Virus record (IMG/VR): IMGVR_UViG_3300015203_000003
Coordinates: 1 to 55,235 of that record
DNA: 55,235 nucleotides
Origin: a virus
Direction: 5' to 3' (one strand)
Below are positions 1,172 to 53,449 of this stretch, piece after piece (position 1 is the first letter of the stretch; the number at the start of each line of letters is the position of its first letter). A program made the position numbers and the translations under genes. Under the pieces are notes generated by a model that worked only from the letters and a program-made list of their open reading frames with translations, made no database searches and was not told the DNA's origin.

Positions 1172-1179
1172 AACTCACC

Positions 1180-3061: not shown

Positions 3062-3067
3062 ATCCCC

Positions 3068-19751: not shown

Positions 19752-19760
19752 GGGTCTAAT

Positions 19761-19780
19761 ATGCTTAGGCGTCTAAGCAT
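19761..19780. promoter_or_regulatory. Near-perfect 20-bp palindrome ATGCTTAGGCGTCTAAGCAT between the transposase and Panacea genes
   Basis: 8-bp arms ATGCTTAG/CTAAGCAT around GCGT, within the 103-nt divergent intergenic region. Confidence 0.4.
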
Positions 19781-19854
19781 TGTCAACGGGATTTTAAAAT
19801 ATTTGCGTACTGGTACGGTTCTTGGTAAGCTCTACTGGAGAGACAACTGTTCAA

Positions 19855-20400
19855 ATGAACATTAAATTAACCGGATTTACCGATAAACTGGAGGAACTTG
19901 TCCTGTACATCATCGCGATGTCGGAACGAGACCCACGGTTTATGTGCACCAAATTGAACAAGCTGGTTTGGGCTGCCGATTTCGCGTGTTTCTGCGAAAC
20001 CGGCAGCACGATCACTGGCGCAAATTATCAGCGCCAGAAATTCGGACCCGTTCCCAAGGCTATGCCAATCATTCTGGGGCGACTTGAGCGGGAGGGGCGA
20101 ATTGAGATGCAGGAGGTGCAGATTGGAACGAAAGTTGGCATTCGGCCAGTCGCCAAGGCCGCGCCCGACATTTCAGCGTTCTCTCAGCGCCAATTGATGC
20201 TCGCCAGCAAGATGGTTGCAGACAACTTCGGCAAGACAGGAACAGAGTTGAGCGAGGAGAGTCATAAAAAATTGGCGTGGAAGGTTCTGGATAATGGCGA
20301 CGAAATTCCGTTTGCTTCGTGGTTCGTTACCGCTCGGAACCCCACCCCTGCCGAAAGAGCTATAGGGTTGGAACTGGAAGCCGCTCTGGAGCAGAACTAA
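19855..20400 (+). CDS. Panacea-domain (DUF4065, SocA/GepA-like) antitoxin-type protein
   Basis: ATG 19855 (the track start at 19822 is TTG). TKLNKLVWAADFACFCETGSTITGANYQRQKFGPVP fits the DUF4065 core as I remember it. Confidence 0.6.
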   Translation: MNIKLTGFTDKLEELVLYIIAMSERDPRFMCTKLNKLVWAADFACFCETGSTITGANYQRQKFGPVPKAMPIILGRLEREGRIEMQEVQIGTKVGIRPVAKAAPDISAFSQRQLMLASKMVADNFGKTGTELSEESHKKLAWKVLDNGDEIPFASWFVTARNPTPAERAIGLELEAALEQN

Positions 20401-21284
20401 ATATCCTCCATCGTAATCTCGCGGGACGCTTCAGGGACCGCAGGGAACTCAGTATGGGGTGCTTGATCGGTATCCTTGAACGCCGCCTTCGCGGCCTTGA
20501 CGGCTTTCTGGGCCCGCTCAAATTGTCGCTTTGAGAACTGCACGAAGTCAACCAAGGCATCAAAATCGTCTGGCGTAAGTTCTTGTCCGGTAAAGACAAG
20601 TGTCGCCTGATTTGCGCCGAGCGGGATGGTGTATTGAGCGAGCATCTTTTGGCCTTGCGGGGCTACGTGAGCGTGTGGCGTGTAATCTGACAATGGATCG
20701 ACGAGGATAAATGGCGGATTCTGCGTCGATTTTGGTTCATTGGCTGGAGGCGGTTGCTCCTGTTGCTGTTTTGGCGTTTCATCCCTGCCTTCATTTTGTA
20801 CCACAGGCGTGCTGCTGGAATCAAGTTTAGCGAAGGTTTTATTTGCCGTATAGGCTTTGGCAACCCGCTTTGCCCTGTCGAGATTGAACCCATTTTGCAC
20901 TAAGTGACTTACGAGAACGTCCTCAGAGCAGTCATTATAGCCATTATACAGGTCCTCAAAGACTTTTGGAGCCAGAGCAGCTTCTCGAATCGCAGTGAGT
21001 GATTGATCGGTACTGGTTGGGTGCAGTATCCGCAAGGAAAGCGAAGTGACCGTGAGCATGCCCTTGGCCCGGTCAATCAGTCCATATTGCGAGAACCCGG
21101 CCAGCAGCGTGAGCGAGCTGCCCGTCAGCCCTGAATACCCCATTGCCCTGCAAGCCACCTCCGGCTTCACAGGTGAGCGCCCTATTTGAGCGTGGAGCTT
21201 TTTGACCCTAGAAATCGCCTCCTCAAGTTCCACCACTGGAGCCCTGGGGCTTCTGTCTTGATTGGCTATATCGTCGTCATTCAT
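20397..21284 (-). CDS. Hypothetical 295-aa protein: winged-helix-like N-terminus, low-complexity linker, unknown C-terminal domain
   Basis: First ATG is at 21284 (the track start at 21401 is GTG). The stop codon overlaps the stop of the convergent Panacea gene. No family recognised. Confidence 0.55.
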   Translation of the reverse strand: MNDDDIANQDRSPRAPVVELEEAISRVKKLHAQIGRSPVKPEVACRAMGYSGLTGSSLTLLAGFSQYGLIDRAKGMLTVTSLSLRILHPTSTDQSLTAIREAALAPKVFEDLYNGYNDCSEDVLVSHLVQNGFNLDRAKRVAKAYTANKTFAKLDSSSTPVVQNEGRDETPKQQQEQPPPANEPKSTQNPPFILVDPLSDYTPHAHVAPQGQKMLAQYTIPLGANQATLVFTGQELTPDDFDALVDFVQFSKRQFERAQKAVKAAKAAFKDTDQAPHTEFPAVPEASREITMEDI

Positions 21285-21445
21285 AAAGCCAACCGTATAA
21301 CGGATTACACGATACCGCAAGCGGCGAATAGAATAAACCGTATCGTGTCCTGAAAATAATGCTTGTGCTCGCCGGAGCTTAGGGTGTATGCCATGTGGCA
21401 CGCTGAGAAATTGGCTCCAAAAAGTTCCGCTATAAACCAGAAATC

Positions 21446-26341: not shown

Positions 26342-26369
26342 TTGACAGCGAACCGAACCCGAGTAATAT
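26342..26369 (+). promoter_or_regulatory. Rightward sigma70-type promoter TTGACA-N16-TAATAT
   Basis: Near-consensus hexamers. The -10 ends 9 nt before ATG 26379, which implies a leaderless mRNA. Confidence 0.6.
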
Positions 26370-26376
26370 GGTTCGC
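26348..26376. promoter_or_regulatory. Inverted repeat GCGAACC-N15-GGTTCGC spanning the spacer and -10 of the rightward promoter
   Basis: Same half-site as the 26304..26317 palindrome. The position would occlude RNA polymerase. Confidence 0.45.
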
Positions 26377-26378
26377 AA

Positions 26379-26903
26379 ATGGGATTGTCAAATGAACAAA
26401 TTCAGGCCAGCGCATTACACGCCCAGCGAGTCCAGCGGATCGTATGGTACAGGGACGAGTTTCGAAAACGAACGATGGCGCTCGTCCAGCTTCTGCGAGA
26501 ACTGCGGGACGACAAGCTCAAGCCGTGGATTGACGAGTGCGGGACATTCGAAGAGTTTTGTGAAAAGGAATTCGGCATGACACCCAGGCGCGTACAACAA
26601 ATCCTAAGCGCCGATTCAGCACGAAAAGCACTGTGCGACGAAGCGCCGGAACTCACTGGAACGGTCGCAACGATGGGCGAGCGACCGATGCGCGAACTGG
26701 CCGCAACGCCCAAAGCCCAGCGAATCCAAGTGCTGAGACAGGCGCTAAAGACGGCAGCGAAACCAACGGCCAAGGGCATCAAAGCCGCGAGGGCCATCGT
26801 CATCGATGTGAAACCAGCACCACCTGCCGCACCTGCACCCTCGCACGAAACCAGCACCGAACCCGAACCCCGCTGCCCGGCCTGCGGCCAGGCGCTGCCA
26901 TGA
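26379..26903 (+). CDS. DNA-binding (HTH) protein, first gene of the rightward operon
   Basis: WIDECGTFEEFCEKEFGMTPRRVQQILSA resembles ParB/KorB-type HTH segments. C-terminal CPACG. Confidence 0.5.
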   Translation: MGLSNEQIQASALHAQRVQRIVWYRDEFRKRTMALVQLLRELRDDKLKPWIDECGTFEEFCEKEFGMTPRRVQQILSADSARKALCDEAPELTGTVATMGERPMRELAATPKAQRIQVLRQALKTAAKPTAKGIKAARAIVIDVKPAPPAAPAPSHETSTEPEPRCPACGQALP

Positions 26904-27129: not shown

Positions 27130-27445
27130 CATTGACCCAGCCTCTTCCGTAACGGTAAACCTTCTCCGCTTCCAGCAACTTGCTCGGGAGGGCGCACCGC
27201 TCCAACAGCGGATCGCAGAAATCAGCTTGGAGCAGGTGCAACTCTCCCACCGAGAGGCAATCGAAATCGTGAAGGCCGCATTCCCGAACGCGAAGATTTT
27301 GGAAGTCGTTCCACTGGCCGAAATCAAGCCCTCAGACTTCGCCAAAGCAGCTCAAACAACAGTCGAAAAGATCTATGAAACCGGAGCCACCCCGGGACTG
27401 ATCCTCATCGACAACCGCAGATTTTTAATCACCCTTGCCCAATGA
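27119..27445 (+). CDS. Hypothetical protein
   Basis: 108-aa ORF. ATGA overlap downstream. Confidence 0.55.
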   Translation: MNTSIDPASSVTVNLLRFQQLAREGAPLQQRIAEISLEQVQLSHREAIEIVKAAFPNAKILEVVPLAEIKPSDFAKAAQTTVEKIYETGATPGLILIDNRRFLITLAQ

Positions 27446-27921
27446 GAAAGCGGCGTCGCAGAAAACCCGGTCCGAAGCCCAAGCCCCCAAAACCAAAGGT
27501 TTCCCAGAAGCGGTACAAAACCCCCAAGGCGCTGGAGGTCCAAGAGGCGGCTGTTGTCCGCGACTGCATCGTGGCCATGATTGTCGGCATGGGCATCGGC
27601 GGCCTCACATGGATGGCCAACAAACTCGGCATGAGCGTTTCGACCCTTCGCCGGCGACTCCTTAAGGACCACGGGTGCTTCGACCTCGTGACGATGCGGG
27701 CCATGCTCCTCATCATGGAAAACCGGGAAGAGAAGCTCAATTATTTGCAGCAGTTTGGCAAAACGGAAAACGTCGGCCCCTACACCATCCGCGTCCGATA
27801 TTCGACGATGTACGGAGAGCACGTCCCAACATGGGAGGTGACACCAGGGGCAGAAACCGAGCCGGGAACAGCCGAACCCAAAGCCGCCGCCACAGTCTTC
27901 GGCAACTTCGAGAACACGTAA
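27442..27921 (+). CDS. Basic N-terminal tail plus HTH protein (regulator candidate)
   Basis: MRKRRRRKPGPKPKPPKPK tail, followed by TWMANKLGMSVSTLRRRL. Confidence 0.45.
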   Translation: MRKRRRRKPGPKPKPPKPKVSQKRYKTPKALEVQEAAVVRDCIVAMIVGMGIGGLTWMANKLGMSVSTLRRRLLKDHGCFDLVTMRAMLLIMENREEKLNYLQQFGKTENVGPYTIRVRYSTMYGEHVPTWEVTPGAETEPGTAEPKAAATVFGNFENT

Positions 27922-29067: not shown

Positions 29068-29394
29068 ATGAACCTCGACCTCGTAAAATTCCGCATCATC
29101 AGCAAACGCTACTCCCAGGTCCGCGCTATCATGGCCGAGCTTGGCGAGAGCGACACGTTACTCTTGCGCTCGCTTCGCGACGGCTTCGGCATCCGGTTCG
29201 ACAGCGTGAAGGAGGACCCGGAGCTTTTCTTCGTGCAGGACTCGGAGCAAATGGGGCTGCTGCGCGAAAGCGGCATCGGCTCGCCGACATGGCTGCAAAT
29301 CCTCGGGACCTCCCGAATGGTCGCGCTGTCTCAACTGGATGCAGATCGCAAATTCCGGGAACTGATCGGGGACATTGAACCGGGGACGAACTAA
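29068..29394 (+). CDS. Hypothetical protein
   Basis: 108 aa with a GGAGAGAAAAGG Shine-Dalgarno sequence. TAATG overlap with terL. Confidence 0.55.
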   Translation: MNLDLVKFRIISKRYSQVRAIMAELGESDTLLLRSLRDGFGIRFDSVKEDPELFFVQDSEQMGLLRESGIGSPTWLQILGTSRMVALSQLDADRKFRELIGDIEPGTN

Positions 29395-31007
29395 TGCCGC
29401 TAGTGGCCGCTGTACCGGAGGCGGCTGCCGTCGAATCCGAACCTGAATGCTTCTACCGGCCGGGGCCGAGCATCCAGAAGTTTCATGATTCCAGAGCATT
29501 TGTTAGAATTATCATAGGAGGCCGTGGGAGCGGGAAAACGGCAGCCTGCTCAATCGAATCCATCCGCCACGGCTGGCACTGCGCGGGTGCCAAGATACTT
29601 TTTGTCCGCAAGACCGAGGCCAGCCAAGTAGATTCGACGATAGATACGCTGCGCCAGTGTTTCGATAACTTGGACCCCGAACTCTACCGGGAAACCGAGG
29701 ACAGCCTATTCCGGGTGTGGAACGATGGCCGGACCATTCGTATCCCCAGCGCCGAGGCGGTGCGCCGGTATCACGTTGTAAAGCCGCTGCTCAAGAAAAA
29801 ATCCCAGCGCCAGGCATGGCTCGACACTGAGGGCACCCGGTGGTGCAGCTTCATCGAGATGCGCGGACTGCCGAATACCGGGGTGAGCCAGTCGAAACTC
29901 CGCGGCTTCGAATGCTCCATGATGGTCTTGATCGAGGCCGACCAGATTGCCCACGAAGATTTCATGCTCTGCCTTGCCTGCTTACGATGGAAGGGCGCGG
30001 ATCCAAAAACCTGCGATGCCAACGGCTTTATCCGGGCGGCCAACGTGGTATTAGACACGAACCCGCCGTCACCGTCTCACTGGATCGCCCAACTGGAGGA
30101 GAACGAGAAAAAGAAGCCGGAGAATGAGCGCCAGATGGCCTTTTGGCACATCAGCACGTACGAGAACGAGCAGAACCTGCCACCGAACTACATCGAGCGC
30201 CAAATCTTGCTGCCGTACGCGAAAAACCCAGCGATGATCGAACGGATGCTCTGGGGCAGGTACGCCGATGCGTTTTCGGGACAGCCGGTCTATTACGCAT
30301 TCGAGCGCGGCATCCACGTTGCGAAGAACCTGCGCTGGCCCATCGGGGCCTTCCTGGTTCGAGGCTACGACTTCGGGACGTGTAACGCTGTGACCTGGAG
30401 CGCCTACTGGATGGATAAGGGCTGTGAATACTGGCACATCCTGTTCGAGAATGTTTTGGAAGGGAGTGACACCGAGCGGCAGGCGCAAGCGACCCTCGAC
30501 CTCACATCGAAAAACTTCCCATTCTGGAATGACCGCTCCATTTGCGCCGGCGTGCTCGACTTCTGCGACCCGAGTGGCGGAAACAGCAACTTTAGCACGA
30601 AGGAAACCGGGAGCAGCGTCAAGATATTGAACACCTACGGCATCCACCCCGGGACGAACCTCTGGCAGCGCTCCATTGCCATCGGCGTTGCGATTATTAA
30701 CCGGCTATTGACCAAGCGCGATCCGCTCGGAAATCCCTGCTTTCGCATCGATGAGGATAATTGCCCACTACTCGTTCGGGCATTCTCAGGCGGCTATAAG
30801 TACCCATCCAAGGGCGATGACGGATACGGAAAGGATGAGCCCATGAAAGGGATTTCCAAAGGCCAAGATTACGACTATAGCCACGTTTCGGACAGTTGCC
30901 GGTATCCAATTTTGAACGCCATGCGCCTCCTGCGCCAAGAGTACGAGGCGCCGAAGAAGGCACTGTTACCACGGGTGCAGAACCCGAACCCGGCCAAGCG
31001 GTTTTAA
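29394..31007 (+). CDS. terL: Terminase large subunit
   Basis: Walker A GGRGSGKT, Walker B-like MVLIEADQ. The 537-aa size and the position before the head genes fit. Confidence 0.85.
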   Translation: MPLVAAVPEAAAVESEPECFYRPGPSIQKFHDSRAFVRIIIGGRGSGKTAACSIESIRHGWHCAGAKILFVRKTEASQVDSTIDTLRQCFDNLDPELYRETEDSLFRVWNDGRTIRIPSAEAVRRYHVVKPLLKKKSQRQAWLDTEGTRWCSFIEMRGLPNTGVSQSKLRGFECSMMVLIEADQIAHEDFMLCLACLRWKGADPKTCDANGFIRAANVVLDTNPPSPSHWIAQLEENEKKKPENERQMAFWHISTYENEQNLPPNYIERQILLPYAKNPAMIERMLWGRYADAFSGQPVYYAFERGIHVAKNLRWPIGAFLVRGYDFGTCNAVTWSAYWMDKGCEYWHILFENVLEGSDTERQAQATLDLTSKNFPFWNDRSICAGVLDFCDPSGGNSNFSTKETGSSVKILNTYGIHPGTNLWQRSIAIGVAIINRLLTKRDPLGNPCFRIDEDNCPLLVRAFSGGYKYPSKGDDGYGKDEPMKGISKGQDYDYSHVSDSCRYPILNAMRLLRQEYEAPKKALLPRVQNPNPAKRF

Positions 31008-32176: not shown

Positions 32177-32205
32177 TTGCAATTCAATATCAGCCCATCC
32201 AATAG
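32177..32205 (+). promoter_or_regulatory. Late promoter-like element TTGCAA-N17-CAATAG(CGCGAC)
   Basis: Member of the CAATAGCGCGA family. The -10 ends 9 nt before ATG 32215. Confidence 0.55.
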
Positions 32206-32214
32206 CGCGACTTT

Positions 32215-32583
32215 ATGGCCCTTAAATCTCTCGCCGTCTCCGACATCCCCTCTCCAACCGTGGACGCTCCCAGCACTTCTGAGGAGCCGGAAAACTCGGT
32301 GATGGATTTGAGCAGCGATCAGGTATCCGAAGCGGGCATGGGCGGCGCGAAAGTGGGCGACATCTTTACAGCCACGGTCAAGATGAAGGTGAGCCGGGTG
32401 CCTGACCCGAGCGATTTGAACAGCGGCGGTATCGGAGTGGAGCTGGTGAATATCAGCGATGCCAAGCCGGCCAAGGAAGAGGACGAGCCGGACAACCCAG
32501 CAGAGGCCCGCATCTTTTCACCCAAGCCCAGCAACAAGCCGGTGAGTCCAAAGGATGCGGGATTCGGCGACGAGGAGGAATAA
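32215..32583 (+). CDS. Hypothetical acidic protein (probably highly expressed)
   Basis: Starts right after a CAATAGCGCGAC element with no Shine-Dalgarno sequence. Confidence 0.55.
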   Translation: MALKSLAVSDIPSPTVDAPSTSEEPENSVMDLSSDQVSEAGMGGAKVGDIFTATVKMKVSRVPDPSDLNSGGIGVELVNISDAKPAKEEDEPDNPAEARIFSPKPSNKPVSPKDAGFGDEEE

Positions 32584-32584
32584 A

Positions 32585-32923
32585 ATGGACGTAAGCCCTC
32601 AAATGCCACTCGCCCAGACGGCCAGTCTCCCGCTCAACATGAGCGACATCCTCGCCCAGATGCCAATCAAGAAGCCGATGGCCCAGGAGGCACCCGTGCC
32701 AGGCCCAGCGGCAGGCGTGCAGCAGATGGCACCGCCACCGGACGCGGCAGACCCCGGCGCCGCACCGCAGCCGCCGTACACCGTGCGGTTGCAACCCGAT
32801 GGCTCGAGCGTGTACGAGATAACCACAGGACTGCCGCCGGGCGCGCCGCCGATCATCATCGGAGTGAATAAACCGCCAAATCTTCCGCCCGCACTCCAAC
32901 AGCCGAAGGTGCCCACACAATAA
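32585..32923 (+). CDS. Pro-rich hypothetical protein
   Basis: Internal ATG at 32585, 2 nt after the upstream stop. Confidence 0.5.
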   Translation: MDVSPQMPLAQTASLPLNMSDILAQMPIKKPMAQEAPVPGPAAGVQQMAPPPDAADPGAAPQPPYTVRLQPDGSSVYEITTGLPPGAPPIIIGVNKPPNLPPALQQPKVPTQ

Positions 32924-32936
32924 GGAGCAGTCGCGA

Positions 32937-33464
32937 ATGCCCGACGCTCCAGCCATAGTGCCACATGGGCGTGCCGTCGCATCACAAACCGTCGCCGCAT
33001 CGCCAACTCCATTAACGGTTACTTCTGCGCCGGTGGCACCGCAGTACGAAACCACTCTTTCGCCTGAAGAAGAGCAGCAATTTTCGCAATGGAAGATGCG
33101 CTATGCGCCTCATGACACCGGCGAAGATTACGATCTACGCGGGGCCTTTAGGGCAGGATTGAAACCCGACGCTGTACGCGGCCATTTCCCCGACACATAC
33201 AAAAAGCCAAATCATCCCACGTTTTCCGTGGAATCAATGTATTCCACCCCAGATCAGCCAGGCGGCGCTTGGGGCCGAATCGATGGGAGAGACACCTTTG
33301 AGCCATCATCCTTCATGATGAAGGATTCGGAGCGCATTAAAAACCTCCAGAACTATTTCAAAAAACGAGAGCCAGCGGCAAAGTTAATACTTCCCGCGAC
33401 CGCCGCATTCACTCCCAATCCTCCCATGGGCGCGGTCACTCCAATCCAAGCCGGAATCCAATAG
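32937..33464 (+). CDS. Hypothetical conserved phage protein
   Basis: AAGGAG Shine-Dalgarno sequence. The DYDLRGAFRAGLKPD...KKPNHPTFSVES motif recurs in phage proteins of unknown function as far as I recall. Confidence 0.55.
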   Translation: MPDAPAIVPHGRAVASQTVAASPTPLTVTSAPVAPQYETTLSPEEEQQFSQWKMRYAPHDTGEDYDLRGAFRAGLKPDAVRGHFPDTYKKPNHPTFSVESMYSTPDQPGGAWGRIDGRDTFEPSSFMMKDSERIKNLQNYFKKREPAAKLILPATAAFTPNPPMGAVTPIQAGIQ

Positions 33465-33477
33465 CCACTCTTTAGTC

Positions 33478-35610
33478 ATGGACAAACTCCTCGCCCAAAG
33501 ACTGGACGCCAAATCCGTCCGGTACGACGACGCTTTCTTTTCGAAGATGGCGAAACTCGCCTGCGACTACGTGACGGCAGGCAACCAGGTCCTTCAATAC
33601 TACGTTTGCGACCTCGACGCGGCCCATGACGCCGCACAGTGCTACGCCCAGGTCCCGGATTCCGTTTGCCAAAACGCCGGCGCCAAGTTCGACCGGATGA
33701 AGCCCGACAACTTCATCCACCCGATGACCGCGACCGAGATGACAACCATCTCTACTTTCGCTTCCCAGATCATTTTCGGCGGCGCAAGCACGCGAAAGGT
33801 CGAACCCCGGAAGGACGAGGACGAGAAGAAGGCGGATGCGGTCAACGAACTCCTGCAATGGAACGACGACCAGCAGGACACCTACCAGCAGGGGCTGCTC
33901 TTTTGCTGGGATGCCGTGACGTTCAATCGCGGCATCATGTATGACCACTGGAAACCGATCATGCAGATCGACGTGGAGAAAGTGGAGGAGGAGATTCCGG
34001 CAGCCGAGGCGAAGAACGAGAAGGGGAAACTGCGCAAGGCCAAACCCGAGACGCAAACCCGATGGCGCAAGGTCCGGAAACAGATTGGCGGGTTCAACAA
34101 GATCGAACTCATCAGCCCCTACGATTTTATCTGCGATCCGATGCTCCCTTTGCGCCGGATGCAGGAGGGACGATTCGCCGGGCACCGGGTCATGATTCCA
34201 TGGCTGGAATTGAAGCGCCGATCCGAACTCGATGCCGAGGACTACGATTACGTGCTGCCCTCGACCGTGGCGAAGTTGAAGGATAAGCCGATGGCCGCCG
34301 GGGCCTCGCGGTTAATGACCAGCGTTTCTTCGCCATCAGCCGGTGCCATGAGGAGCCGCACCTACTACGAGCGGATGAGGCGGGGAGCGCCCACGGGCTA
34401 CACCGGGACAACCGAATCGGTGAACAAGGAAGACGGCGGAATGATTGAGTGCTTTTGCATCAATATCCGTGTCTCCCCAAAAGCCTACGACATTTACGCC
34501 GACACCGAGCCGGAGATCGTCCAGATCCTCACCTCGGGAGACAAAGGGCTGTTGAGCGTCAACATCCTGCCGAACAAGCACGACGAATATCCGTATGGGG
34601 TAGGCGAGGCGCGGCCGCATGCCCATTACCAATTTTCACCGTCATGGGCGCTAATCATAAAGCCGATCCAAGACTACGTTGATTACTTCAAGAAACGCCG
34701 CCAGGAATCACTCGCCAGGACGAGCGGCAATATCTTCATCGGCGACCCGACAAAGGTTGATTTTGCAGCGTTCACCGATCCAAACAAGGACGGCCTTTTC
34801 ATCCCTATCACCGCCGAGGCCGCGGGCACCCCGATTGACCAGATTATCAAGCAGGTGCAGGTGCATGACACGACCGCCGAGTTTCATCAAGAAATGCTGG
34901 CATGGATGGAGCAGGCCGAGGTGGCGACCGGAGCCCACGCACCGCTACAGGGGCAGACGGATGACCCGAGCCAGTCTGCGACTCAGTTCGCTGGCGTGCA
35001 ACAGATGGGCGTAGGCCGTATGACATCGATGGCGCGCGTACTTTCCAACCAGGTCTTGCAGCCGCAGACCCGGCGATTCGTCTGCAACTTCCAGCAGTTC
35101 ATGCCAGACCAGATGATTATCCGGGTGACGGGTGACACGAGCAACTACGACCCGGATCAGCCGCCGCAGAAGTACATGGAGATTCGACGGGCCGATATTC
35201 AAGCGGAATTCGACGTGATCCCCCACGATGGCACCATGCCGGGGACGGACGCGAAACAGGTCGCGGCCATTTCGAGGATCATCGAGGCGTCAGCGAACCC
35301 AATCTTCGCCCGATGCTTTGACGACACGATTCCCGGTTCGCTCGACCCGAAGAAACTCCTGTACGAAGGGGCGAGCAAGAGTGGTATGCGGCTCTCGAAC
35401 TTCATTGTCTCACGCGAGGTTGCCCAGAAAAATCTAATGATGAGAATGCAGGCGGCCGGCGGCGGAATTCCTTTACCAGGCGCACCCGGAGCACCCGCCG
35501 GACCTCAACCGGCTCCAGGTGGACCACCCGGATTGCCCATGCCCAGCGCGGGGGCAATTCCACCGACCCCAACGGCAACCCCGCCCGGTCCTAACCCAGC
35601 CACGATATGA
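33478..35610 (+). CDS. Portal protein
   Basis: 710 aa. First large gene after the terminase region and before scaffold and capsid. Pro/Gly-rich C-terminal tail. Confidence 0.7.
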   Translation: MDKLLAQRLDAKSVRYDDAFFSKMAKLACDYVTAGNQVLQYYVCDLDAAHDAAQCYAQVPDSVCQNAGAKFDRMKPDNFIHPMTATEMTTISTFASQIIFGGASTRKVEPRKDEDEKKADAVNELLQWNDDQQDTYQQGLLFCWDAVTFNRGIMYDHWKPIMQIDVEKVEEEIPAAEAKNEKGKLRKAKPETQTRWRKVRKQIGGFNKIELISPYDFICDPMLPLRRMQEGRFAGHRVMIPWLELKRRSELDAEDYDYVLPSTVAKLKDKPMAAGASRLMTSVSSPSAGAMRSRTYYERMRRGAPTGYTGTTESVNKEDGGMIECFCINIRVSPKAYDIYADTEPEIVQILTSGDKGLLSVNILPNKHDEYPYGVGEARPHAHYQFSPSWALIIKPIQDYVDYFKKRRQESLARTSGNIFIGDPTKVDFAAFTDPNKDGLFIPITAEAAGTPIDQIIKQVQVHDTTAEFHQEMLAWMEQAEVATGAHAPLQGQTDDPSQSATQFAGVQQMGVGRMTSMARVLSNQVLQPQTRRFVCNFQQFMPDQMIIRVTGDTSNYDPDQPPQKYMEIRRADIQAEFDVIPHDGTMPGTDAKQVAAISRIIEASANPIFARCFDDTIPGSLDPKKLLYEGASKSGMRLSNFIVSREVAQKNLMMRMQAAGGGIPLPGAPGAPAGPQPAPGGPPGLPMPSAGAIPPTPTATPPGPNPATI

Positions 35611-35858
35611 GCGCCGAAGAAGACGCCGCCATCTGCAAAGCGGCCATGATCGCTCCCGAGCAACTGTTTTCCGCCCGGCAAGAGTGGGCGCGGAGACCGA
35701 TCATGCGCAAGGTGCTGGAAGCCAAGCTCGAAATAGAGATCGCTGCCCGCCGCAACACCCTCGAAACCGCCGATGCCGAAAAGATTCAAAAAGAGCAGGG
35801 GGCAATCATTGGCCTCCGAACAGCCCTCGGTATTATTTCCCACCAAGCCAAACCCTAA
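35607..35858 (+). CDS. Hypothetical head-module protein
   Basis: ATGA overlap with the portal gene. Helical, 83 aa. Confidence 0.5.
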   Translation: MSAEEDAAICKAAMIAPEQLFSARQEWARRPIMRKVLEAKLEIEIAARRNTLETADAEKIQKEQGAIIGLRTALGIISHQAKP

Positions 35859-35861
35859 AAT

Positions 35862-36995
35862 ATGAAACGCTACCACCGATTCTCAAACCTATTCATGGCT
35901 GCCGATATTGACCCCGGAGCGGCACCCGCACCGGAAGTGCCTGCCACCGCCGCACCCGAACCTACTGGCACCATGCCGCAGCAGAAAGGCGAAACCCTAT
36001 CGCCAATGAAGGCTCTGGGCCTGCCGGAATCCCCGTCAAAAGACTTGGAGGCGATTCGCAAGGGGCTTGTCGGGCGCAACAAAGATTTGACCGTGCCGAT
36101 CCCGAAGCGCACGGCATCACCGGCCACGAAACCCGAAACCACTCCGGCCCCAACGGCACCGGGTGCTAAAAAGCCCGCTGCACCCGCACCTGCGGCCCCA
36201 GCGCCGCCCGCTCCGGCTCCCGTCGCCAAAATCAAAGTGGGCGACAAGGAATATACCCCCGAGGAACTGGCGGCGAAGATCGCCAAAGCCGATGCGCCGC
36301 CAACCGCTCCGATACCACCCGCCGCACCTGCCACCCCAGCAGCTCCAGCGGCACCGGATACCACGGCGGAAGCCGCTGCAAAGCAGAAGCACCTCGACTA
36401 TCTCACCGAGTTGACCAACGGCATCAAACTGGAAGACGACGGAATTATCCTGAATGAAGAGGAGTGGGATAAAATCCTGTCGGGCGGGCCGGATGGCGTG
36501 ACGGCAGTGAAAGCGCTGCTCTCTCGCCAATCCGCCGCCACGGAACTCCGGACCCGGAAATGGCTGGAGGAGAATTTGAATCCGATCTTGGACAACCTCC
36601 ATAAATCTCTCTCGCCCATCCAGCAGGCTCAGCAGCAGATGCAGAGCGATCAGTGGAAGAACGGATTCGAGGCGGCAAACCCCGACTTGAAGGGACGTGA
36701 CCAGCTTCGCGAAGCCACCCGCGAGGCATTGGTGAAACATTACCCGCAGGACGTGGCGAAGATGACGCAGGAGCAATTCGATACCGAGGTCGCGGCGCAT
36801 ATGCGGGCGACCATTCAGGTCATTGGAGGAGCGCCTACCCCGCCCCCGACGGCTCCCGTAGTTGCCGCGCCGGACCCGGCAGCACCCGCCGCGCCGGAGT
36901 CACCAAAACCGCCGACTGGCCAACTTGGCGGCACCGCCGCGCCTCGCAACTCAAACGCGCAGGCCGAAATGGCAAAGCAGATCGCGGGAATGTAG
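35862..36995 (+). CDS. Scaffolding protein candidate
   Basis: Ala/Pro-rich N-terminal half and helical, charged C-terminal half. Lies between portal and capsid. Confidence 0.55.
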   Translation: MKRYHRFSNLFMAADIDPGAAPAPEVPATAAPEPTGTMPQQKGETLSPMKALGLPESPSKDLEAIRKGLVGRNKDLTVPIPKRTASPATKPETTPAPTAPGAKKPAAPAPAAPAPPAPAPVAKIKVGDKEYTPEELAAKIAKADAPPTAPIPPAAPATPAAPAAPDTTAEAAAKQKHLDYLTELTNGIKLEDDGIILNEEEWDKILSGGPDGVTAVKALLSRQSAATELRTRKWLEENLNPILDNLHKSLSPIQQAQQQMQSDQWKNGFEAANPDLKGRDQLREATREALVKHYPQDVAKMTQEQFDTEVAAHMRATIQVIGGAPTPPPTAPVVAAPDPAAPAAPESPKPPTGQLGGTAAPRNSNAQAEMAKQIAGM

Positions 36996-36996
36996 C

Positions 36997-37179
36997 ATGC
37001 CGAAGAAGAAGGCATGGGGGGGAAAACGCGACGGCGCGGGCCGGAAGCCAAAGTTTGGCGTCGTACTGAAAGCTTGCGTCATGGAGAGCACGAAAAGGGC
37101 GATTGACGGCCTGGCGTTCAAGAGAAACAGGTCCCGCGGTGAAATCCTGGACGAACTCGCCGCTGCGATAAAAGCATAA
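36997..37179 (+). CDS. Ribbon-helix-helix-like small DNA-binding protein
   Basis: Internal ATG at 36997. MPKKKAWGGKRDGAGRKPK tail, then a strand-helix-helix pattern (VVLKACVMESTKRAIDGLAFKRNRSRGEILDELAAAIK). Confidence 0.45.
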   Translation: MPKKKAWGGKRDGAGRKPKFGVVLKACVMESTKRAIDGLAFKRNRSRGEILDELAAAIKA

Positions 37180-37240
37180 GCATCAGTAGTGCCAAGGTTG
37201 GGAATATTTGATTTCTCAAATCCTAAATTCAAGATCGGGC

Positions 37241-37269
37241 TTGGCAGATTGTCTCCGAGGACACAATAG
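37241..37269 (+). promoter_or_regulatory. Late promoter-like element TTGGCA-N17-CAATAG(CGCGAG)
   Basis: The -10 ends 8 nt before ATG 37278 of the capsid gene. Confidence 0.55.
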
Positions 37270-37277
37270 CGCGAGCA

Positions 37278-38633
37278 ATGAAGCCCAAGTACCTCTTGCA
37301 CTCGATTTTCCTTTTGCTTTCGCTGGCGCTGTTCTGCGCTGGTAAACAAGGGGAAGCCACCCTCCTCTTTGTTTCGGCGCTCCTCCTGGACGCCACACTC
37401 GCCAAGCGAACCAGCTTTACGTTTTCGAACGTGGCAGGTTTCTTGAGCACGGCGACCGCCCAGACGAACGATCTCGTCGGCGAATGGCAGGAGACGGTCC
37501 TCGTCCGAAACGCCAAGGGTTTCAATACCGGTTCTACCCTGTTCGGCCTGATGTCTCGCTTGAAGAGCGAGCCTGCCGATAACATGACTTTCAACTGGTG
37601 GGAGCGCGACCCGACCCGGCTGAACTTTTACTCCGATGCCGGCTACTCTTCGGGTGCCACGACCCTGCAATGGCAGGACCAGCTCGGCGCTTACGGCGTG
37701 TGGCCGTTGCTCGACCAGAACGCGATCCTGCTCAACTCCCGCACCTTGGAGCGTGTCCGTGTGGCCGCCGCACCGACAACTGATGCCGTGACCGTGGCGC
37801 GTGGCGTGCAGGGCACGACCGCCGCCGCCGTGCTCATCACGGACCTTTGGACGCTGATTACGCTGGCCAAAGACGAAGGCGCGAACCCCGCCCGATCCAG
37901 CTACGAGCAGCCCACCGCCTACCAGAACGTCATCCAGACGTTCAACGAATCGGTGCTGCTCACCAACGCCTACAAGGCTGGCGTGCTTCGTACCGATTTG
38001 GACGGCCCGCTCATGGAGCGCCGGGTGCATGCGCTGGAGAAGATCGCGAACAAGATCGAACTCGCCTACTTCCTGGGCGTCAAAGAACTGGCCACCGGCA
38101 ACAACGGAACCATCTTCTACACGGGCGGCATTCAGAGCGCGGTGGACGCGGCGGGCTTGACCGCCAACGCGCTCAACGGCCTCGGCTCGACCGGCGTGAC
38201 GCTCGACACGTTCAAGACCTGGCTGCAAAGCTTCATGGTCTTCGGTTCCGATACCAAGCTGGCCTTCTGCGGCCCGCAGGCATACGCCGCGATCTCGAAC
38301 TACGCGAACACCGCAGCCGGCGGATTCCGGATCATGAATCAGGAGACGGTGTTCGGTATGAACATCACGAACATCGTGACGCCGTACGGAGAACTCTCCC
38401 TCGCCTTCCACCCGCTCTTCCAGAACGCAGCGGCCTACAACGGATACATGGCGGTCATCGACCTTCAGTTGCTCGTGCAGAAAGTGGTGGAACCGCTATT
38501 CCTGGAGCCGAACATCCAGCTTCCCGGGCAGGACTCCTACCAGGAGCAGTTCCGCGCCAAGCTGGGCTTAAAACTCAAGTTCCCCGCCGCCTTCGGGTAC
38601 GCGATGAACCTGCAAAAGATCACTGCGGTCTAA
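37278..38633 (+). CDS. Major capsid protein (HK97-fold, SU10/DUF5309-like by motif memory)
   Basis: 451 aa, positioned after the scaffold gene. NMTFNWWERD and the C-terminal YGELSLAFHPLF...MAVIDL resemble this capsid family. An unusual hydrophobic stretch of about 45 aa sits at the N-terminus. Confidence 0.7.
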   Translation: MKPKYLLHSIFLLLSLALFCAGKQGEATLLFVSALLLDATLAKRTSFTFSNVAGFLSTATAQTNDLVGEWQETVLVRNAKGFNTGSTLFGLMSRLKSEPADNMTFNWWERDPTRLNFYSDAGYSSGATTLQWQDQLGAYGVWPLLDQNAILLNSRTLERVRVAAAPTTDAVTVARGVQGTTAAAVLITDLWTLITLAKDEGANPARSSYEQPTAYQNVIQTFNESVLLTNAYKAGVLRTDLDGPLMERRVHALEKIANKIELAYFLGVKELATGNNGTIFYTGGIQSAVDAAGLTANALNGLGSTGVTLDTFKTWLQSFMVFGSDTKLAFCGPQAYAAISNYANTAAGGFRIMNQETVFGMNITNIVTPYGELSLAFHPLFQNAAAYNGYMAVIDLQLLVQKVVEPLFLEPNIQLPGQDSYQEQFRAKLGLKLKFPAAFGYAMNLQKITAV

Positions 38634-38635
38634 TC

Positions 38636-38664
38636 TTGACGGCACGGCAAAAACCATCCAATAG
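38636..38664 (+). promoter_or_regulatory. Late promoter-like element TTGACG-N17-CAATAG(CGCGAC)
   Basis: The -10 ends 8 nt before ATG 38673. A 17-nt block is identical to the one at 32195..32211. Confidence 0.55.
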
Positions 38665-38672
38665 CGCGACCT

Positions 38673-38969
38673 ATGGCCATTGAAGTCTCAAGCCCCTCGG
38701 CTGCCGCTGGGGCGAACATCGAATCCGGTATGGCAGCATCCAAACCGGAAAGCCGTGGACTGGAGATGACGAGCCAGCCGGACGCGGCGAAGGCCAACCC
38801 CGAAAAGGGGCAGGTCTTCATCAAGAATCGGCTGAACGAGATCATCAAGCTGCCGGGTGGCAAGACATACCAGTTCAAGCACACCCGCGAAGTCATCACC
38901 GATCCGGAACTCATCAAAAAACTCAAACAGGTCGCCGACAAATATCAGATCATCATCCACGAGGAATAA
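38673..38969 (+). CDS. Hypothetical head-associated protein (decoration candidate)
   Basis: Has its own CAATAGCGCGAC element directly after the capsid gene. 98 aa. Confidence 0.5.
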   Translation: MAIEVSSPSAAAGANIESGMAASKPESRGLEMTSQPDAAKANPEKGQVFIKNRLNEIIKLPGGKTYQFKHTREVITDPELIKKLKQVADKYQIIIHEE

Positions 38970-38982
38970 CCCACACCCACTC

Positions 38983-39159
38983 ATGAACGAAAAAATCAAG
39001 AAAATGGCCGAGAGCGACGTGCTTTCCCCGGCTCGCACGAACGAGCAGAACATCAAGAACATCACCGGCACCTGCCCACCCACGAAGACGGTCGAGCAGA
39101 TCGACAAAATTAACAGTCCTTGCGGACGCGCGAAGCCCCCAGGCTCAGTCCGGGTTTGA
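38983..39159 (+). CDS. Small hypothetical protein
   Basis: Internal ATG at 38983. 58 aa. Last ORF before a strong terminator. Confidence 0.4.
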   Translation: MNEKIKKMAESDVLSPARTNEQNIKNITGTCPPTKTVEQIDKINSPCGRAKPPGSVRV

Positions 39160-39198
39160 TCGCAACGCCGCGCCGCTAACCACTGCGAAACCTTTTCA

Positions 39199-39239
39199 GG
39201 GCGCGGATTGGGGTAATCCCTGATCCGCGCCTTTTGTTT
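39199..39239 (+). terminator. Rho-independent terminator
   Basis: GGCGCGGAT (39200-39208) pairs with ATCCGCGCC (39223-39231). The stem extends inward to GGG/CCC around a TAAT loop and is followed by TTTTGTTT. Confidence 0.75.
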
Positions 39240-39244
39240 ACACC

Positions 39245-39928
39245 ATGAATTTGCAAGATTTAATCTTCGAGGTGGGCGAACTGAGTGCCGTCAGCCCGCG
39301 CATTCAGTCCGACATCAAGGGCTACATCAACCGCGCCCAGAAGGCGATTTGCGCGCGTAGAAACTGGACTTTTATGCAAGGAGTGCGCTCCTACACAATC
39401 CTCGCCGGCGCGACCAGCGTGAACCTGGACAGCACGTTCAAGTCCCTCACCGCCGAGACAAGCCCGGTGACGTGGAGTGACCCCATCAGCACGGCCCAGA
39501 TCCCGGTGAAGGTTCTCAGCCGAGAAGAGGCGCAGCGGTATAACTGGGCGCTCTATGCGCCGTATCAGCCGCCGGTGGCACCCGTGGCGACCCCGCCGAC
39601 GCCGTGGGTCTTCATCGACCGCGTGGGCGCGCAGTGGACGCTCAATAACTCCGTCATCAATACCACGAGCACGCAGAGCATGACCTACAATATCTCCGCG
39701 CTGTTTTACCCCGCCGACCTGGTGCTGGGCACGGACAGCAATGCGCTGACCAATGACGGGGAACTGGCGGAAGCGCTGGTTAATCTGGCCAAGGCCATTG
39801 CCTATTTCGCTGAGAAACCGGGCCACCCGGACGGGATGGCGGCGATGGCGCTCTACGAATCTCATTACCGGCAGGCGTGCTATTCGGATGCGCGGGCGAA
39901 AATCGGAGGAATGGCCGCACATTGGTAA
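39245..39928 (+). CDS. Head-tail adaptor/neck protein candidate
   Basis: First gene after the head-module terminator. 227 aa. Confidence 0.4.
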   Translation: MNLQDLIFEVGELSAVSPRIQSDIKGYINRAQKAICARRNWTFMQGVRSYTILAGATSVNLDSTFKSLTAETSPVTWSDPISTAQIPVKVLSREEAQRYNWALYAPYQPPVAPVATPPTPWVFIDRVGAQWTLNNSVINTTSTQSMTYNISALFYPADLVLGTDSNALTNDGELAEALVNLAKAIAYFAEKPGHPDGMAAMALYESHYRQACYSDARAKIGGMAAHW

Positions 39929-39931
39929 TCC

Positions 39932-40675
39932 ATGAACATCGGTAATATCAAAAATCTGGTGGCGGGACTGCTTCATCAGGTCCCATCGGCCTTTGTGCTC
40001 AACGGCGTCGATACCTTGCTCGTGGCGATCAATAACGCCAAGAAGACCGGAGAACGGGTACGGGATTTTTACTACTCCCAGATGCCGGCCTACCTGTCAG
40101 TGGCGAGCACCGGCAGCGCCATCACCGGCGCCACCACCGCGGCGGGCAGCGGTTCTGCCGTCATCATCAAGCGAATCCAATCCGTGCAACTGGCCGTCTC
40201 AGGCGGGTACATCCCGATTGAATTCATGCGGGAAGACGAATACATTTCGCGGTTGCGCAAGCAGATTGGACGGACGCCATACGTGGCGGGGAACACCCTC
40301 GCCAGCTACGGCATCTCCAGCGAAAATCCCATTGCCTACCAGCAGGGTCAAAACCTGTTTCTGGTGGGGACTGGCATCACATTTCCGATCATCGTCAAGA
40401 TGGACGTCGTTCAATGGCTGCCGGATTACGCCAACGACGCGGACACCGATTTTTTCACGCAATTCGGGGCCACATATTTGCAATGGCAGGCGATCCTCGA
40501 AGGCAACAGATATTGGCAGCAATTCGTGACCCGGCAGGAGGGAGCTGTCGTGGAAGATAGCGTTACCACTTCGGCCAACCAAGCGCTGGCGGCATTTCTG
40601 GAATGGGACGACTCCATTTCAAAGGGAACGAGCAGTACAAAGCTGCCTGCTCCGGAATCTACGCCACCAAAGTAA
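39932..40675 (+). CDS. Virion structural protein (neck/tail)
   Basis: Position and tight packing in the late operon. Confidence 0.4.
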   Translation: MNIGNIKNLVAGLLHQVPSAFVLNGVDTLLVAINNAKKTGERVRDFYYSQMPAYLSVASTGSAITGATTAAGSGSAVIIKRIQSVQLAVSGGYIPIEFMREDEYISRLRKQIGRTPYVAGNTLASYGISSENPIAYQQGQNLFLVGTGITFPIIVKMDVVQWLPDYANDADTDFFTQFGATYLQWQAILEGNRYWQQFVTRQEGAVVEDSVTTSANQALAAFLEWDDSISKGTSSTKLPAPESTPPK

Positions 40676-40678
40676 GCC

Positions 40679-41881
40679 ATGGCCTCGCGTAATCCAGGGC
40701 CATCACTCACCAGCAGGTTTTCCGGCCTCGTGGACGTGGTGCCGAAGAACTGGCTGGCCAAACTCGGGCTAACCAAGATCGAGCAAAAAGAGCCGAACGA
40801 GATCGATGTCGATGCGATTTCCCCGACGCTCGTGGAGTCCGATGTCGAATCGACCTACACGGGCGAGCGGAAAAAGACGAACAAGAGCATCGGCGACCCC
40901 ACGGGCGTAACCCTCCAGGGGCAGGAATACGACCCGCGCTACAATTACGTCCGCCGGTACGCTCAGACCATGCCGCTCACCGGCGCAGTGCTGGGCAACG
41001 CCGGAACCGAAGTGACCCCGCTTGGAATCGAGTACGACCTTGCGACCACCATTGACCTCACGGCGATTCAAGCAGCGCTCGCCGGCGTGTTCCGATCGTT
41101 CCCGGGCCGGTCATCCATCGAAGTTCCGCCTATTCTTTTAGGCATAACGCCAACACCCGCCTTGGGACAAGGGGCTGGAATTGGAATAGGCGCGGGATCG
41201 GGATCTGGCAGCGGCTCAGGCTGGATGTGGTCAATTCATCAAAACAATAGCAGCGAGGCGAACGCCAGCGCCATTTACGAATTTGTCCCGCTCTTTAAAT
41301 ACCCCTGGGCAAAGAATATCCGGGTGCAGGATTATTTCCTGTTCATCGTCGGCCCAAACACCACGGATGCGGCTGTGATTGCAGCGCTCCTGCTCCATTT
41401 TTCCATTACGGTCAACCTGTGGCCGCTGTGGGATCCAGAACCAGTTCAATTCCTGGCCAAGGGACAGAATATCAGAATCCGGGCAAGCGCAGAAGGGACG
41501 GCTGACGCATCTGCTTTTGCGAACGATAGCGGAGCCGGAAGCTCAAGCAGCTCATCAAATACGTCAGAAGAAAGTTTTTCTGTAGAAAACATCTTACGGG
41601 TTTACGAGTATCAGCCTAGTATCCATGCGCATATTACCAGCCTTATCGGCCTCGCTTCAACCATCGGCGCAAATGCCACTGCCGCCGTTGGGGTGGGGGG
41701 CGGATCGTCGGTTAGTTTATCTCAAACGGCCACGGCACAAGTAAGTATCGACATCCCGGCAACGAACGTAACAACTTGGCCGACCTCCGGTCTCTACCTC
41801 TACGATGTGCAATCCGAGAGCAGCGATTACGGGATGATTATGATTCGTGCCCGGGTGCTGGATTTTGCCAACTTCAGATAA
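40679..41881 (+). CDS. Virion structural protein (tail)
   Basis: 400 aa with a Gly/Ser-rich internal stretch. Lies in the late operon. Confidence 0.4.
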   Translation: MASRNPGPSLTSRFSGLVDVVPKNWLAKLGLTKIEQKEPNEIDVDAISPTLVESDVESTYTGERKKTNKSIGDPTGVTLQGQEYDPRYNYVRRYAQTMPLTGAVLGNAGTEVTPLGIEYDLATTIDLTAIQAALAGVFRSFPGRSSIEVPPILLGITPTPALGQGAGIGIGAGSGSGSGSGWMWSIHQNNSSEANASAIYEFVPLFKYPWAKNIRVQDYFLFIVGPNTTDAAVIAALLLHFSITVNLWPLWDPEPVQFLAKGQNIRIRASAEGTADASAFANDSGAGSSSSSSNTSEESFSVENILRVYEYQPSIHAHITSLIGLASTIGANATAAVGVGGGSSVSLSQTATAQVSIDIPATNVTTWPTSGLYLYDVQSESSDYGMIMIRARVLDFANFR

Positions 41882-42730
41882 ATGACGCCCGGAGAACAAG
41901 CCTTTCAAGATTCCGCAGCCGCAAGGCTTATGGCGTTCAAACAGCGCCTCGACGCGAAAGAGACGCCATTCGTCGCCTCGTCGCAGTACCAGCCTTCGGT
42001 TGTGCGAGAGACGCGGATTATCTCGCCGCTGAGTGTTCGAAGAACGACACAGACTGATCCATCACCAAGGGTTCCGTGGCCAATTATTTCAGGAAACAAT
42101 CGTCCATGCTGCCTATACCCTGGAGCTTTTGATCCAAGTCTACCAGGACGCTCACCCACAGATTTTCCGGCTACAGTAAAAGTTGTCGGCATCGCTGGTG
42201 GACCCGACTCTTCCTTCCCGACATATGGACATAATCTAAACACCGTTCTTACTGCTTACACTGGAAGCTCAAAGTTTTTCGTGGGGCCGGAATACGTGAA
42301 TTACGTCTATTCAGATACTGGAGACGACTCGGGCACAGTCTTCGTCACTCCAACCGGTGCCGGATGGGGATTATACCTCGATGGGGCAACAAACGATTAC
42401 GGCCCAGGAACAGTTAGCCTTGATCTTTTTAGCGTAGGGCTTTGCTTGGTTGCAAGCTATTCTACGGCAGTGGTGACTGACCAATTCGACGATACCTACA
42501 CGGTAAACGGAACGGACACGATCACCAGGGCGGCTGGAGTTGTCGTTGATGTGATGACGATCCCTAGCTGCATGTGGACCGGCCCAAAGTCCGGAGGCGG
42601 CATGTGGAAGCTGGATTACGGAAAATCCACGCCCTTCAAATGGCACCTGCACTCTGCGTCCTCAGACGATGACAAGACCTCTCCCCAAAACAAGCCCGAT
42701 GGCCCTTACGGGACAAACACCATCTCATAA
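41882..42730 (+). CDS. Virion structural protein (tail)
   Basis: 282 aa. The start abuts the upstream stop. Confidence 0.4.
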   Translation: MTPGEQAFQDSAAARLMAFKQRLDAKETPFVASSQYQPSVVRETRIISPLSVRRTTQTDPSPRVPWPIISGNNRPCCLYPGAFDPSLPGRSPTDFPATVKVVGIAGGPDSSFPTYGHNLNTVLTAYTGSSKFFVGPEYVNYVYSDTGDDSGTVFVTPTGAGWGLYLDGATNDYGPGTVSLDLFSVGLCLVASYSTAVVTDQFDDTYTVNGTDTITRAAGVVVDVMTIPSCMWTGPKSGGGMWKLDYGKSTPFKWHLHSASSDDDKTSPQNKPDGPYGTNTIS

Positions 42731-42751
42731 AAAAAGTGGTTTTTTATGGGC

Positions 42752-42780
42752 TTGCAAAGGCCCGGAAAGCCCTCCAATAG
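42752..42780 (+). promoter_or_regulatory. Late promoter-like element TTGCAA-N17-CAATAG(CGGC)
   Basis: Same bipartite geometry as the other late elements, but here ATG 42808 lies 27 nt downstream of the -10. Confidence 0.45.
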
Positions 42781-53420: not shown

Positions 53421-53449
53421 TTGTCACGGCGGACACAAAGTCCTAATCG
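53421..53449 (+). promoter_or_regulatory. Promoter-like element TTGTCA-N17-TAATCG
   Basis: The -10 ends 8 nt before ATG 53458. Lies directly after the probable terminator. Confidence 0.5.

Follow-up and report, generated by a model that had tools for sequence, protein, structure and literature searches.

Candidate sigma-70-type promoters with leaderless or near-leaderless starts upstream of virion genes in an uncultured SU10-like phage

The viral record IMGVR_UViG_3300015203_000003 of IMG/VR, whose 55,235 nucleotides (nt) were analysed in full and are called the window below, contains four copies of a bipartite element, TTGNNN-N17-CAATAG, in front of head and other virion genes. In our reading these four elements, and probably also a site at 53421, are promoters of sigma-70 architecture for virion transcription units, most likely read by the host RNA polymerase (RNAP) and, site 4 apart, giving rise to leaderless or near-leaderless mRNAs; we put the probability of this at roughly two in three. 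The fixed distance of 8-9 nt between the second hexamer and the ATG is the main addition to a first-pass annotation of the same DNA, which had suggested that the elements are a phage-specific class of late promoters. Protein lengths are given in amino acids (aa), and the sites are as follows:

Site 1 (P1), plus strand: TTGCAA 32177-32182, 17 nt, CAATAG 32200-32205, CGCGACTTT, ATG 32215; 122-aa gene, the first in a block reaching the portal gene.
Site 2 (P2), plus strand: TTGGCA 37241-37246, 17 nt, CAATAG 37264-37269, CGCGAGCA, ATG 37278; major capsid protein.
Site 3 (P3), plus strand: TTGACG 38636-38641, beginning 2 nt past the capsid stop codon, 17 nt, CAATAG 38659-38664, CGCGACCT, ATG 38673; conserved 98-aa gene.
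Site 4 (P4), plus strand: TTGCAA 42752-42757, 17 nt, CAATAG 42775-42780, 27 nt, ATG 42808; an A/T-rich inverted repeat lies upstream at 42727-42747.
Probable extra member (P5), plus strand, found in this analysis: TTGTCA 53421, 17 nt, TAATCG 53444-53449, CCGCCCCC, ATG 53458.

The first-pass annotation had located all four copies correctly. In the whole window TTGNNN-N17-CAATAG occurs four times, throughout on the plus strand, compared with 0.24 occurrences expected, and among 300 dinucleotide-preserving shuffles not one attained a count of four for TTG-N20-CAATAG. When an ATG 8-9 nt downstream is added to the pattern, three occurrences stand against an expectation of 0.023. The block CAATAGCG is found four times (1.2 expected), always on the plus strand and between 32 and 43 kilobases (kb), and the four copies occupy four of the very few non-coding gaps in the tightly packed late region. 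Also borne out was the identity of the 17-mers at 32195-32211 and 38654-38670, which both read CCATCCAATAGCGCGAC. This 17-mer gave five matches in IMG/VR, none of them related to the phage analysed here and none with a nearby TTG or ATG; they are chance matches.

As had been proposed, the upstream half of the element is sigma-70-like and the downstream half is not a TATAAT box. The -35 hexamers of sites 1-4 match TTGACA at four to five of six positions and are always preceded by C, and the 28 nt upstream of them contain 54-68% A+T (genome mean 43%). The spacer measures exactly 17 base pairs (bp) in all four copies, at 53421 and at both sites of the related contig L014 described below. CAATAG shares two of six positions with TATAAT, with C at position 1, A at position 2 and G at position 6, and a register shift of 1-2 nt brings back no T at position 6. 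A consensus promoter scan of the window returned none of sites 1-4. Other promoter-like hexamers of the same genome read TAATAT (26342), CATATT (19786, minus strand) and CACTAT (28203, terminase unit). In three copies CGCGA follows directly 3' of the hexamer.

Comparison with relatives supports the promoter reading well. The nearest relative consists of two short contigs from one sample, L014 with the capsid gene (82% identity of the capsid protein) and L110 with the portal gene (71% identity of the portal). L014 carries TTGGCA-17-CAATCG-8-ATG at position 686 before the capsid gene and TTGACA-17-CAATCG-8-ATG at position 2084 before the gene that follows it, the in-register counterparts of sites 2 and 3. 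The intergenic DNA of L014 is otherwise diverged, yet both sites are conserved. The sequence after the hexamer differs, with CGACTCTC and CCTTTCTC in L014 compared with CGCGAGCA and CGCGACCT in this phage; the GCGCGA that the first-pass annotation had called conserved therefore belongs to this genome only. The annotation had also listed a partial fifth copy, TCCAATAGCC, at 33457-33466 (plus strand) before the portal gene. It lacks a TTG, as had been said, but is probably neither a member of the set nor a promoter: its TAG is the stop codon of the gene 32937-33464, the ATG is 13 nt away, and L110 has no such sequence before its portal gene.

The capsid protein has hundreds of homologues, and in the distant relatives L015, L016, L018 and L019 it is 56-68% identical (alignment A2). 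In these loci the ATGs of the orthologous genes stand 35-38 nt behind a TTGACA-like hexamer, and the second hexamers are quite different. Positional counterparts were found as follows:

Capsid gene (P2): L015, L016, L018 and L019.
Gene after the capsid gene (P3): L015, L018 and L019.
First gene of the portal block (P1): L015:3646.
Block of large internal proteins (P4): L015:15724, L018:14501 and L019:8379, in the same syntenic place.

The gene downstream of site 1 has orthologues at L110:87 and L015:3646, and L015 contains TTGTCA-17-TAGTGG-8-ATG at the position of site 1. L014, L015, L018 and L019 all retain a TTGAC immediately behind the capsid stop codon, and the distance from the T of its TTG to the ATG is 35-38 nt. 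When the window and 14 related loci were counted together, the distance from TTG to ATG peaked at 35-38 nt, with 16 occurrences among 124 starts after gaps. At equivalent positions the relatives carry many different second hexamers; across the promoter-like sites of the group these follow the loose pattern YAATAK, into which CAATAG fits. The exact motif is absent from L001-L006. A genome scan with capsid patterns revealed no prophage relative, a metagenome scan nothing closer than 65% identity, and the phage collection neither a near-identical record nor a close relative; when the 282-aa protein encoded before site 4 served to look for more of the nearest relative's contigs, the best match was only 45% identical.

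The elements might be functionless, as chance copies or as duplication relics; the identical 17-mer in two copies could mean recent copying. We consider the probability of this practically negligible: the observed count was never reached in the shuffles, every copy lies between genes, on the coding strand and in register with a gene start, and sites 2 and 3 are conserved in L014 despite the diverged DNA around them.

The hexamer stands 9, 8, 8 and 8 nt before the ATG at sites 1, 2, 3 and 53421, and 27 nt before it at site 4. A distance of 8-9 nt points to a leaderless or near-leaderless mRNA. At sites 1, 3 and 53421 the two to four bases directly before the ATG are all pyrimidines, so that no purine comes earlier in the usual start window than the A of the ATG; site 2 has an A immediately before its ATG. 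For the mRNAs from these four sites we infer a 5' end at the ATG or 1-3 nt upstream of it, whereas the mRNA from site 4 would have a leader of about 20 nt with no Shine-Dalgarno sequence and would not be leaderless. All starts at these sites are ATG, and GGAG, GAGG and AGGA are absent upstream. An independent Logan assembly (ERR4837134) is identical over 15.4 kb, and its gene caller chooses the same four start codons. The first-pass annotation was correct in reporting no Shine-Dalgarno sequence at the four genes, but this is nothing special to them. Such a sequence was found at two of 27 late starts compared with 13 of 36 early or middle starts; since 25 of the 27 late starts are without it, its absence is not particular to these elements. 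The two halves of the genome seem to use different signals for the start of translation. In mycobacteria, a 5' ATG is both necessary and sufficient for leaderless translation (PMC4633059).

The start of the capsid gene can be judged from the protein. Its N-terminus has a hydrophobic extension of about 48 residues (37278-37421, MKPKYLLHSIFLLLSLALFCAG...) with the pattern MKxK...GALLS...SNVAGFL (alignment A2), which is conserved as protein in a subfamily of the homologues and absent from others. ATG 37278 is therefore the true start. Possible roles are a propeptide that is cleaved off and a membrane or scaffold-like segment. In the public contigs the capsid genes L014:723 and L015:9971 appear to have been annotated with too late a start; beginning at the conserved ATG directly behind the promoter lengthens the proteins by 20 and 10 residues, respectively.

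Two further elements accompany the promoters:

Intrinsic terminator, 39198-39240, plus strand: stem of 16 pairs followed by a T run, 4 nt before the adaptor ATG 39245.
Putative divergent promoter of a KTSC-domain gene, 32182-32144, minus strand: TTGCAA 32182-32177, 17 nt, CACCAT 32159-32154, 7 nt, ATG 32146.

An equivalent hairpin with a T run precedes the adaptor gene in six relatives (L012, L015, L016, L017, L018 and L019), and L004 has a similar hairpin after a scaffold-like gene, upstream of the capsid gene. With the promoter upstream and this conserved terminator downstream, the capsid unit is bracketed by both throughout the group. The proposal of promoter-like elements before virion genes is supported by their position and spacing, their conservation in relatives and the terminator downstream. 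Site 1 is one half of a 68-nt divergent region, in which the palindromic TTGCAA forms the -35 hexamer for both strands. The KTSC-domain gene (68 aa, Pfam 5.6e-19) was independently called in the Logan assembly, and L015 has the same back-to-back promoter layout. Back-to-back promoters with a common TTGCAA could compete for polymerase.

According to the explanation we favour, the -35 hexamer (cTTGnnn) and the A/T-rich upstream DNA would recruit polymerase, the weak -10-like CAATAG 17 bases further on would serve as second hexamer, and transcripts would start at or near the ATG and be translated without a ribosome-binding site. P1 would head the genes through the portal and a putative scaffold protein, and P2 the capsid gene; P3 would re-start transcription for the small genes past the capsid, up to the terminator (39198-39233) before the adaptor gene, and P4 would head the large internal or tail proteins. 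Because no phage RNAP or sigma gene was detectable, the host RNAP is the most likely reader. The likeliest reasons why the copies share a weak hexamer and part of the sequence after it would be that expression is thereby tuned to be late or dependent, or that an accessory factor binds there.

Several points weigh against this explanation. Promoter activity, start sites, late timing and the factor that reads the hexamer rest on inference throughout, and the host was deduced only indirectly. In Escherichia coli the T residues at positions 1 and 6 of the -10 hexamer are important for recognition by sigma-70; a hexamer with two of six matches and no T at either position may thus be read poorly by the host holoenzyme alone. 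The identical 17-mer of sites 1 and 3 and the uniform CAATAGCG exceed what a housekeeping sigma needs. The L110 orthologue of site 1 has CCAATCC 9 nt before the ATG and no TTG -35 hexamer. Finally, the ATG lies 37-38 nt from the T of TTG, 2-3 nt beyond the 35 nt typical of the cellular leaderless promoters sampled, and the mRNAs may carry 1-3 additional bases. Speaking for the explanation, leaderless promoters occur in the likely host phylum: in the fragments of Verrucomicrobiota genomes TTGAC peaks sharply 35 nt before ATGs, mostly those of transposases from the same insertion sequence (IS) family as a copy in this phage (see below), for example TTGACA-17-CATATT-6-ATG.

The first-pass annotation had suggested that the elements are read with an alternative or modified specificity factor. 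Here, the TCCAATAGCG(CGA) box would be read by a phage sigma-like protein or by a remodeller of the host sigma, and TCCAATAGCG would be the element of a divergent sigma or sigma-altering protein that co-evolves with its promoters and turns on leaderless late mRNAs. We regard this as possible but unlikely. It would account for the missing T at positions 1 and 6 in all four copies, while other sites in the genome are more canonical (TAATAT, CATATT, CACTAT), and for the shape of the conserved block, which is asymmetric and about 13 nt long, as for a sigma contact, and keeps the copies identical far past the hexamer. Moreover, the box shifts in concert, with CAATAG at four sites here, CAATCG at both L014 sites and CCAATCG/CCAATCC in L110, although for this concerted change one relative supplies just two or three orthologous sites. 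Very divergent sigmas with late promoters of their own are encoded by phages whose SU10-type head genes are related, and sigmas of this type can be only 15% identical to each other (PMC8948821). On the other hand, no sigma factor or RNAP was found among about 60 open reading frames (ORFs) with Pfam, PHROGs and NCBIfam, although many ORFs match no family, and neither phmmer nor tblastn with gp36 of phiEco32 revealed a homologue. The replication module does not resemble phiEco32's, the -35 hexamer and the 17-nt spacing suit a housekeeping sigma, the late promoters of the more distant relatives have no common box, and CAATAG falls within the loose YAATAK consensus of the group. The unusual hexamer and its concerted change thus speak for part of the original proposal, but a special factor is not the best-supported reading.

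Other candidates on this side were rejected. Weak RpoD and HrdB matches of a 334-aa minus-strand protein proved to be low-complexity, and comparison of three candidate regulators with PDB sequences gave nothing useful. Promoters of the sigma-54, sigma-32, sigma-28 and extracytoplasmic function classes misfit in spacing or sequence when their consensus sequences were compared by eye with the sites. A late promoter of the T4 type would consist of a single TATAAATA at -10 and lack a -35; the sequence here is different, and a -35 hexamer is present. For a promoter on the opposite strand across the box no consistent -35 hexamer was found.

The identity that extends well past the hexamer, including the 17 nt common to sites 1 and 3, would also be expected of an operator, at which a repressor or activator bound over the -10 region and discriminator of host-type promoters would co-regulate the four units. 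Candidate small DNA-binding proteins are encoded at 27442-27921 (159 aa, weak helix-turn-helix match) and 36997-37179 (60 aa), and other promoters of this genome have clear palindromes, TGTCC-N4-GGACA in the P2 spacer and GCGAACC-N15-GGTTCGC at 26342. The block itself is without dyad symmetry, the sequence past CAATnGC is not kept in L014, no family was matched significantly by the candidate proteins, and the structure model of the 27442-27921 product is too poor for a fold search (predicted local distance difference test, pLDDT, 50). An operator at the box appears quite unlikely to us.

In a further alternative the box acts at the RNA level, as a processing site or a translation signal of non-Shine-Dalgarno type in transcripts begun further upstream. 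The fixed distance from box to ATG would suit this, L110 has CCAAT at an equal distance from the ATG without a -35 hexamer, and as no terminator lies between the capsid gene and site 3, read-through RNA would include the box. Such an element leaves unexplained why TTG stands exactly 17 nt upstream in all four copies and why TTGAC is conserved in relatives with different downstream sequence; in addition, the box of site 4 is 27 nt from the ATG, most late genes begin without a box, and there was no Rfam match. We judge it very improbable. Stop-and-restart coupling via the TAG of CAATAG was discarded for sites 1 and 3, where this TAG does not close any small ORF from upstream.

The window holds several other notable sequence features. 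The palindrome TGTCTCCGAGGACA in the spacer of site 2 (37250-37263) looks like a putative operator for some regulator. This TGTCC-N4-GGACA palindrome upstream of the capsid gene is kept in relatives (L014:695-708, L015, L016 and L012/L013); in L012/L013 it is retained too, where the capsid gene is preceded by a Shine-Dalgarno sequence and a long leader. A second inverted repeat of the TTGATT...AATCAA type is located at 37210-37236, just 5' of the capsid -35 hexamer, and is kept in L014 at about 650-676. Having no T run, it is unlikely to be a terminator. The 60-aa ORF 36997-37179 (MPKKKAWGGKRDGAGRKPKF...), directly 5' of the capsid promoter, was also found by an independent gene caller; by eye its product resembles a small ribbon-helix-helix DNA-binding protein, with no family match and no homologue in the relatives. 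At 26342-26381 the sequence reads TTGACA-16-TAATAT-9-ATG (26379), with the inverted repeat GCGAACC-N15-GGTTCGC around the -10 hexamer. The gene at 26379 (174 aa, with a helix-turn-helix-like segment) is probably an operator-controlled leaderless early or regulatory gene. The idea that the 66-aa and 216-aa genes after site 4 are a single split gene found no supporting homology. Among the early genes, GGAGGACAACCAATGAG, comprising a Shine-Dalgarno sequence and start codon, occurs in three copies at 8618, 8896 and 9409 before three consecutive small genes, and a similar sequence, CTGGACTAACCAAATGA, is found at 10162.

The window is a phage with SU10-type head genes. Bases 1-88 recur at 55148-55235, and with this terminal overlap of 88 nt the 55,235-nt assembly is a complete genome, circular or circularly permuted, of about 55,147 bp. 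As the contig is circular, the genes after 53458 run on into 1-4214, a region with a DUF1353 gene and a weak peptidoglycan-binding match; together they are possibly a lysis unit. The late genes assigned are:

Large terminase, 29394-31007.
Portal of SU10 type, 33478-35610.
Major capsid protein of SU10 type, 37278-38633, plus strand (Pfam 2.3e-23).
Adaptor of SU10 type, 39245-39928.

The early half codes for ERF and YqaJ recombination proteins, a replication initiator, a DnaC-like loader, a helicase and a methylase. The window contained neither tRNA genes nor Rfam matches.

Indirect clues suggest that the host probably belongs to the Verrucomicrobiota. The best of them is an IS1-family transposase inserted in the phage (18909-19751, minus strand), which shares 82% identity with a copy in a peat-derived Chthoniobacteraceae genome and 65-71% with many Verrucomicrobiota copies. 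In addition, a distant homologue of the portal is annotated in a Verrucomicrobiales genome. The promoter of the IS element (minus strand, 18909-19786) is canonical and leaderless, TTGACA-17-CATATT-6-ATG, its spacer is the palindrome ATGCTTAG-ACGC-CTAAGCAT, and it is kept in many copies from Verrucomicrobiota and other phyla. Beside the IS element, in the region 19822-21401, a SocA/Panacea antitoxin-domain gene (19822-20400, plus strand) has its 3' end inside the gene for the 334-aa protein (minus strand, function not assigned). The region 19822-21401 may be a toxin-antitoxin or defence island.

To our knowledge phage transcription in Verrucomicrobiota is unstudied, and a literature search on promoters or leaderless mRNAs in Verrucomicrobia returned nothing relevant. 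If confirmed, the sites would provide a first working map of late transcription units in uncultured SU10-like phages, probably of Verrucomicrobiota, and would mean that the capsid and neighbouring genes are expressed from leaderless or near-leaderless mRNAs. They also correct gene starts in related contigs, as for the capsid genes of L014 and L015, and could supply compact promoters as building blocks for a phylum in which genetic tools are scarce. The uniform weak -10-like box would be a testable handle on late timing in a phage with no recognisable polymerase or sigma gene.

Among known systems, the late promoters of temperate phages that depend on an activator, such as Ogr of P2 or C of Mu, combine a poor -35 region with a conserved activator site, which lies upstream of the -35 or overlaps it. 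The likeness lies in about four late promoters per genome, the use of host polymerase and intrinsic weakness. The sites described here differ in their good -35 hexamer, in a shared block located at the -10 and discriminator, and in having no common upstream dyad among the four. Mu C is described in PMC4461284. The E. coli promoter rrnB P1 combines a G+C-rich discriminator with a distant start, TATAAT-GCGCCACC-A. It resembles the three copies in which CGCGA directly follows the hexamer and transcription would probably start at the ninth or tenth base. In contrast to rrnB P1, the -10 hexamer here is not consensus and the G+C-rich stretch is not kept in the nearest relative, and no growth-rate control is implied.

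For the phiEco32-like phages, phi32_gp36 of phiEco32 reads tAATGTAtA and SaPh711_gp47 of phage 7-11 reads GTAAtg-16-aCTA, with starts 6-9 bp downstream (PMC8948821). Common to them and to the phage analysed here are the SU10-type portal, capsid and adaptor, several late promoters with a common consensus other than TATAAT, their placement before packaging, head and large internal-protein genes, and starts expected 6-9 bp downstream. The consensus sequences, however, are unrelated, the phage in the window has a -35 half of the housekeeping type, its early and replication modules are of another kind (ERF, YqaJ, DnaC-like loader), and neither a homologue of phi32_gp36 nor a sigma from the family scans was found, the comparison having been made with gp36 and not with SaPh711_gp47.

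Leaderless sigma-70 promoters are known from PRM-cI of lambda and from many genes of Actinobacteria, Deinococcus-Thermus and their phages. They differ from the elements described here in a TANNNT hexamer instead of CAATAG and in an ATG 6-7 nt rather than 8-9 nt past it; the identity of the hexamer and part of the discriminator among copies in one genome likewise sets the phage sites apart. Shared with them are the pair of -35 and -10 hexamers, the 17-nt spacing, an ATG few bases past the -10 and the absence of any Shine-Dalgarno sequence, and the same layout is seen in cellular leaderless promoters of Verrucomicrobiota such as TTGACA-17-CATATT-6-ATG. Taken together, the sites are most likely a known kind of signal that occurs in an unstudied group of uncultured phages.

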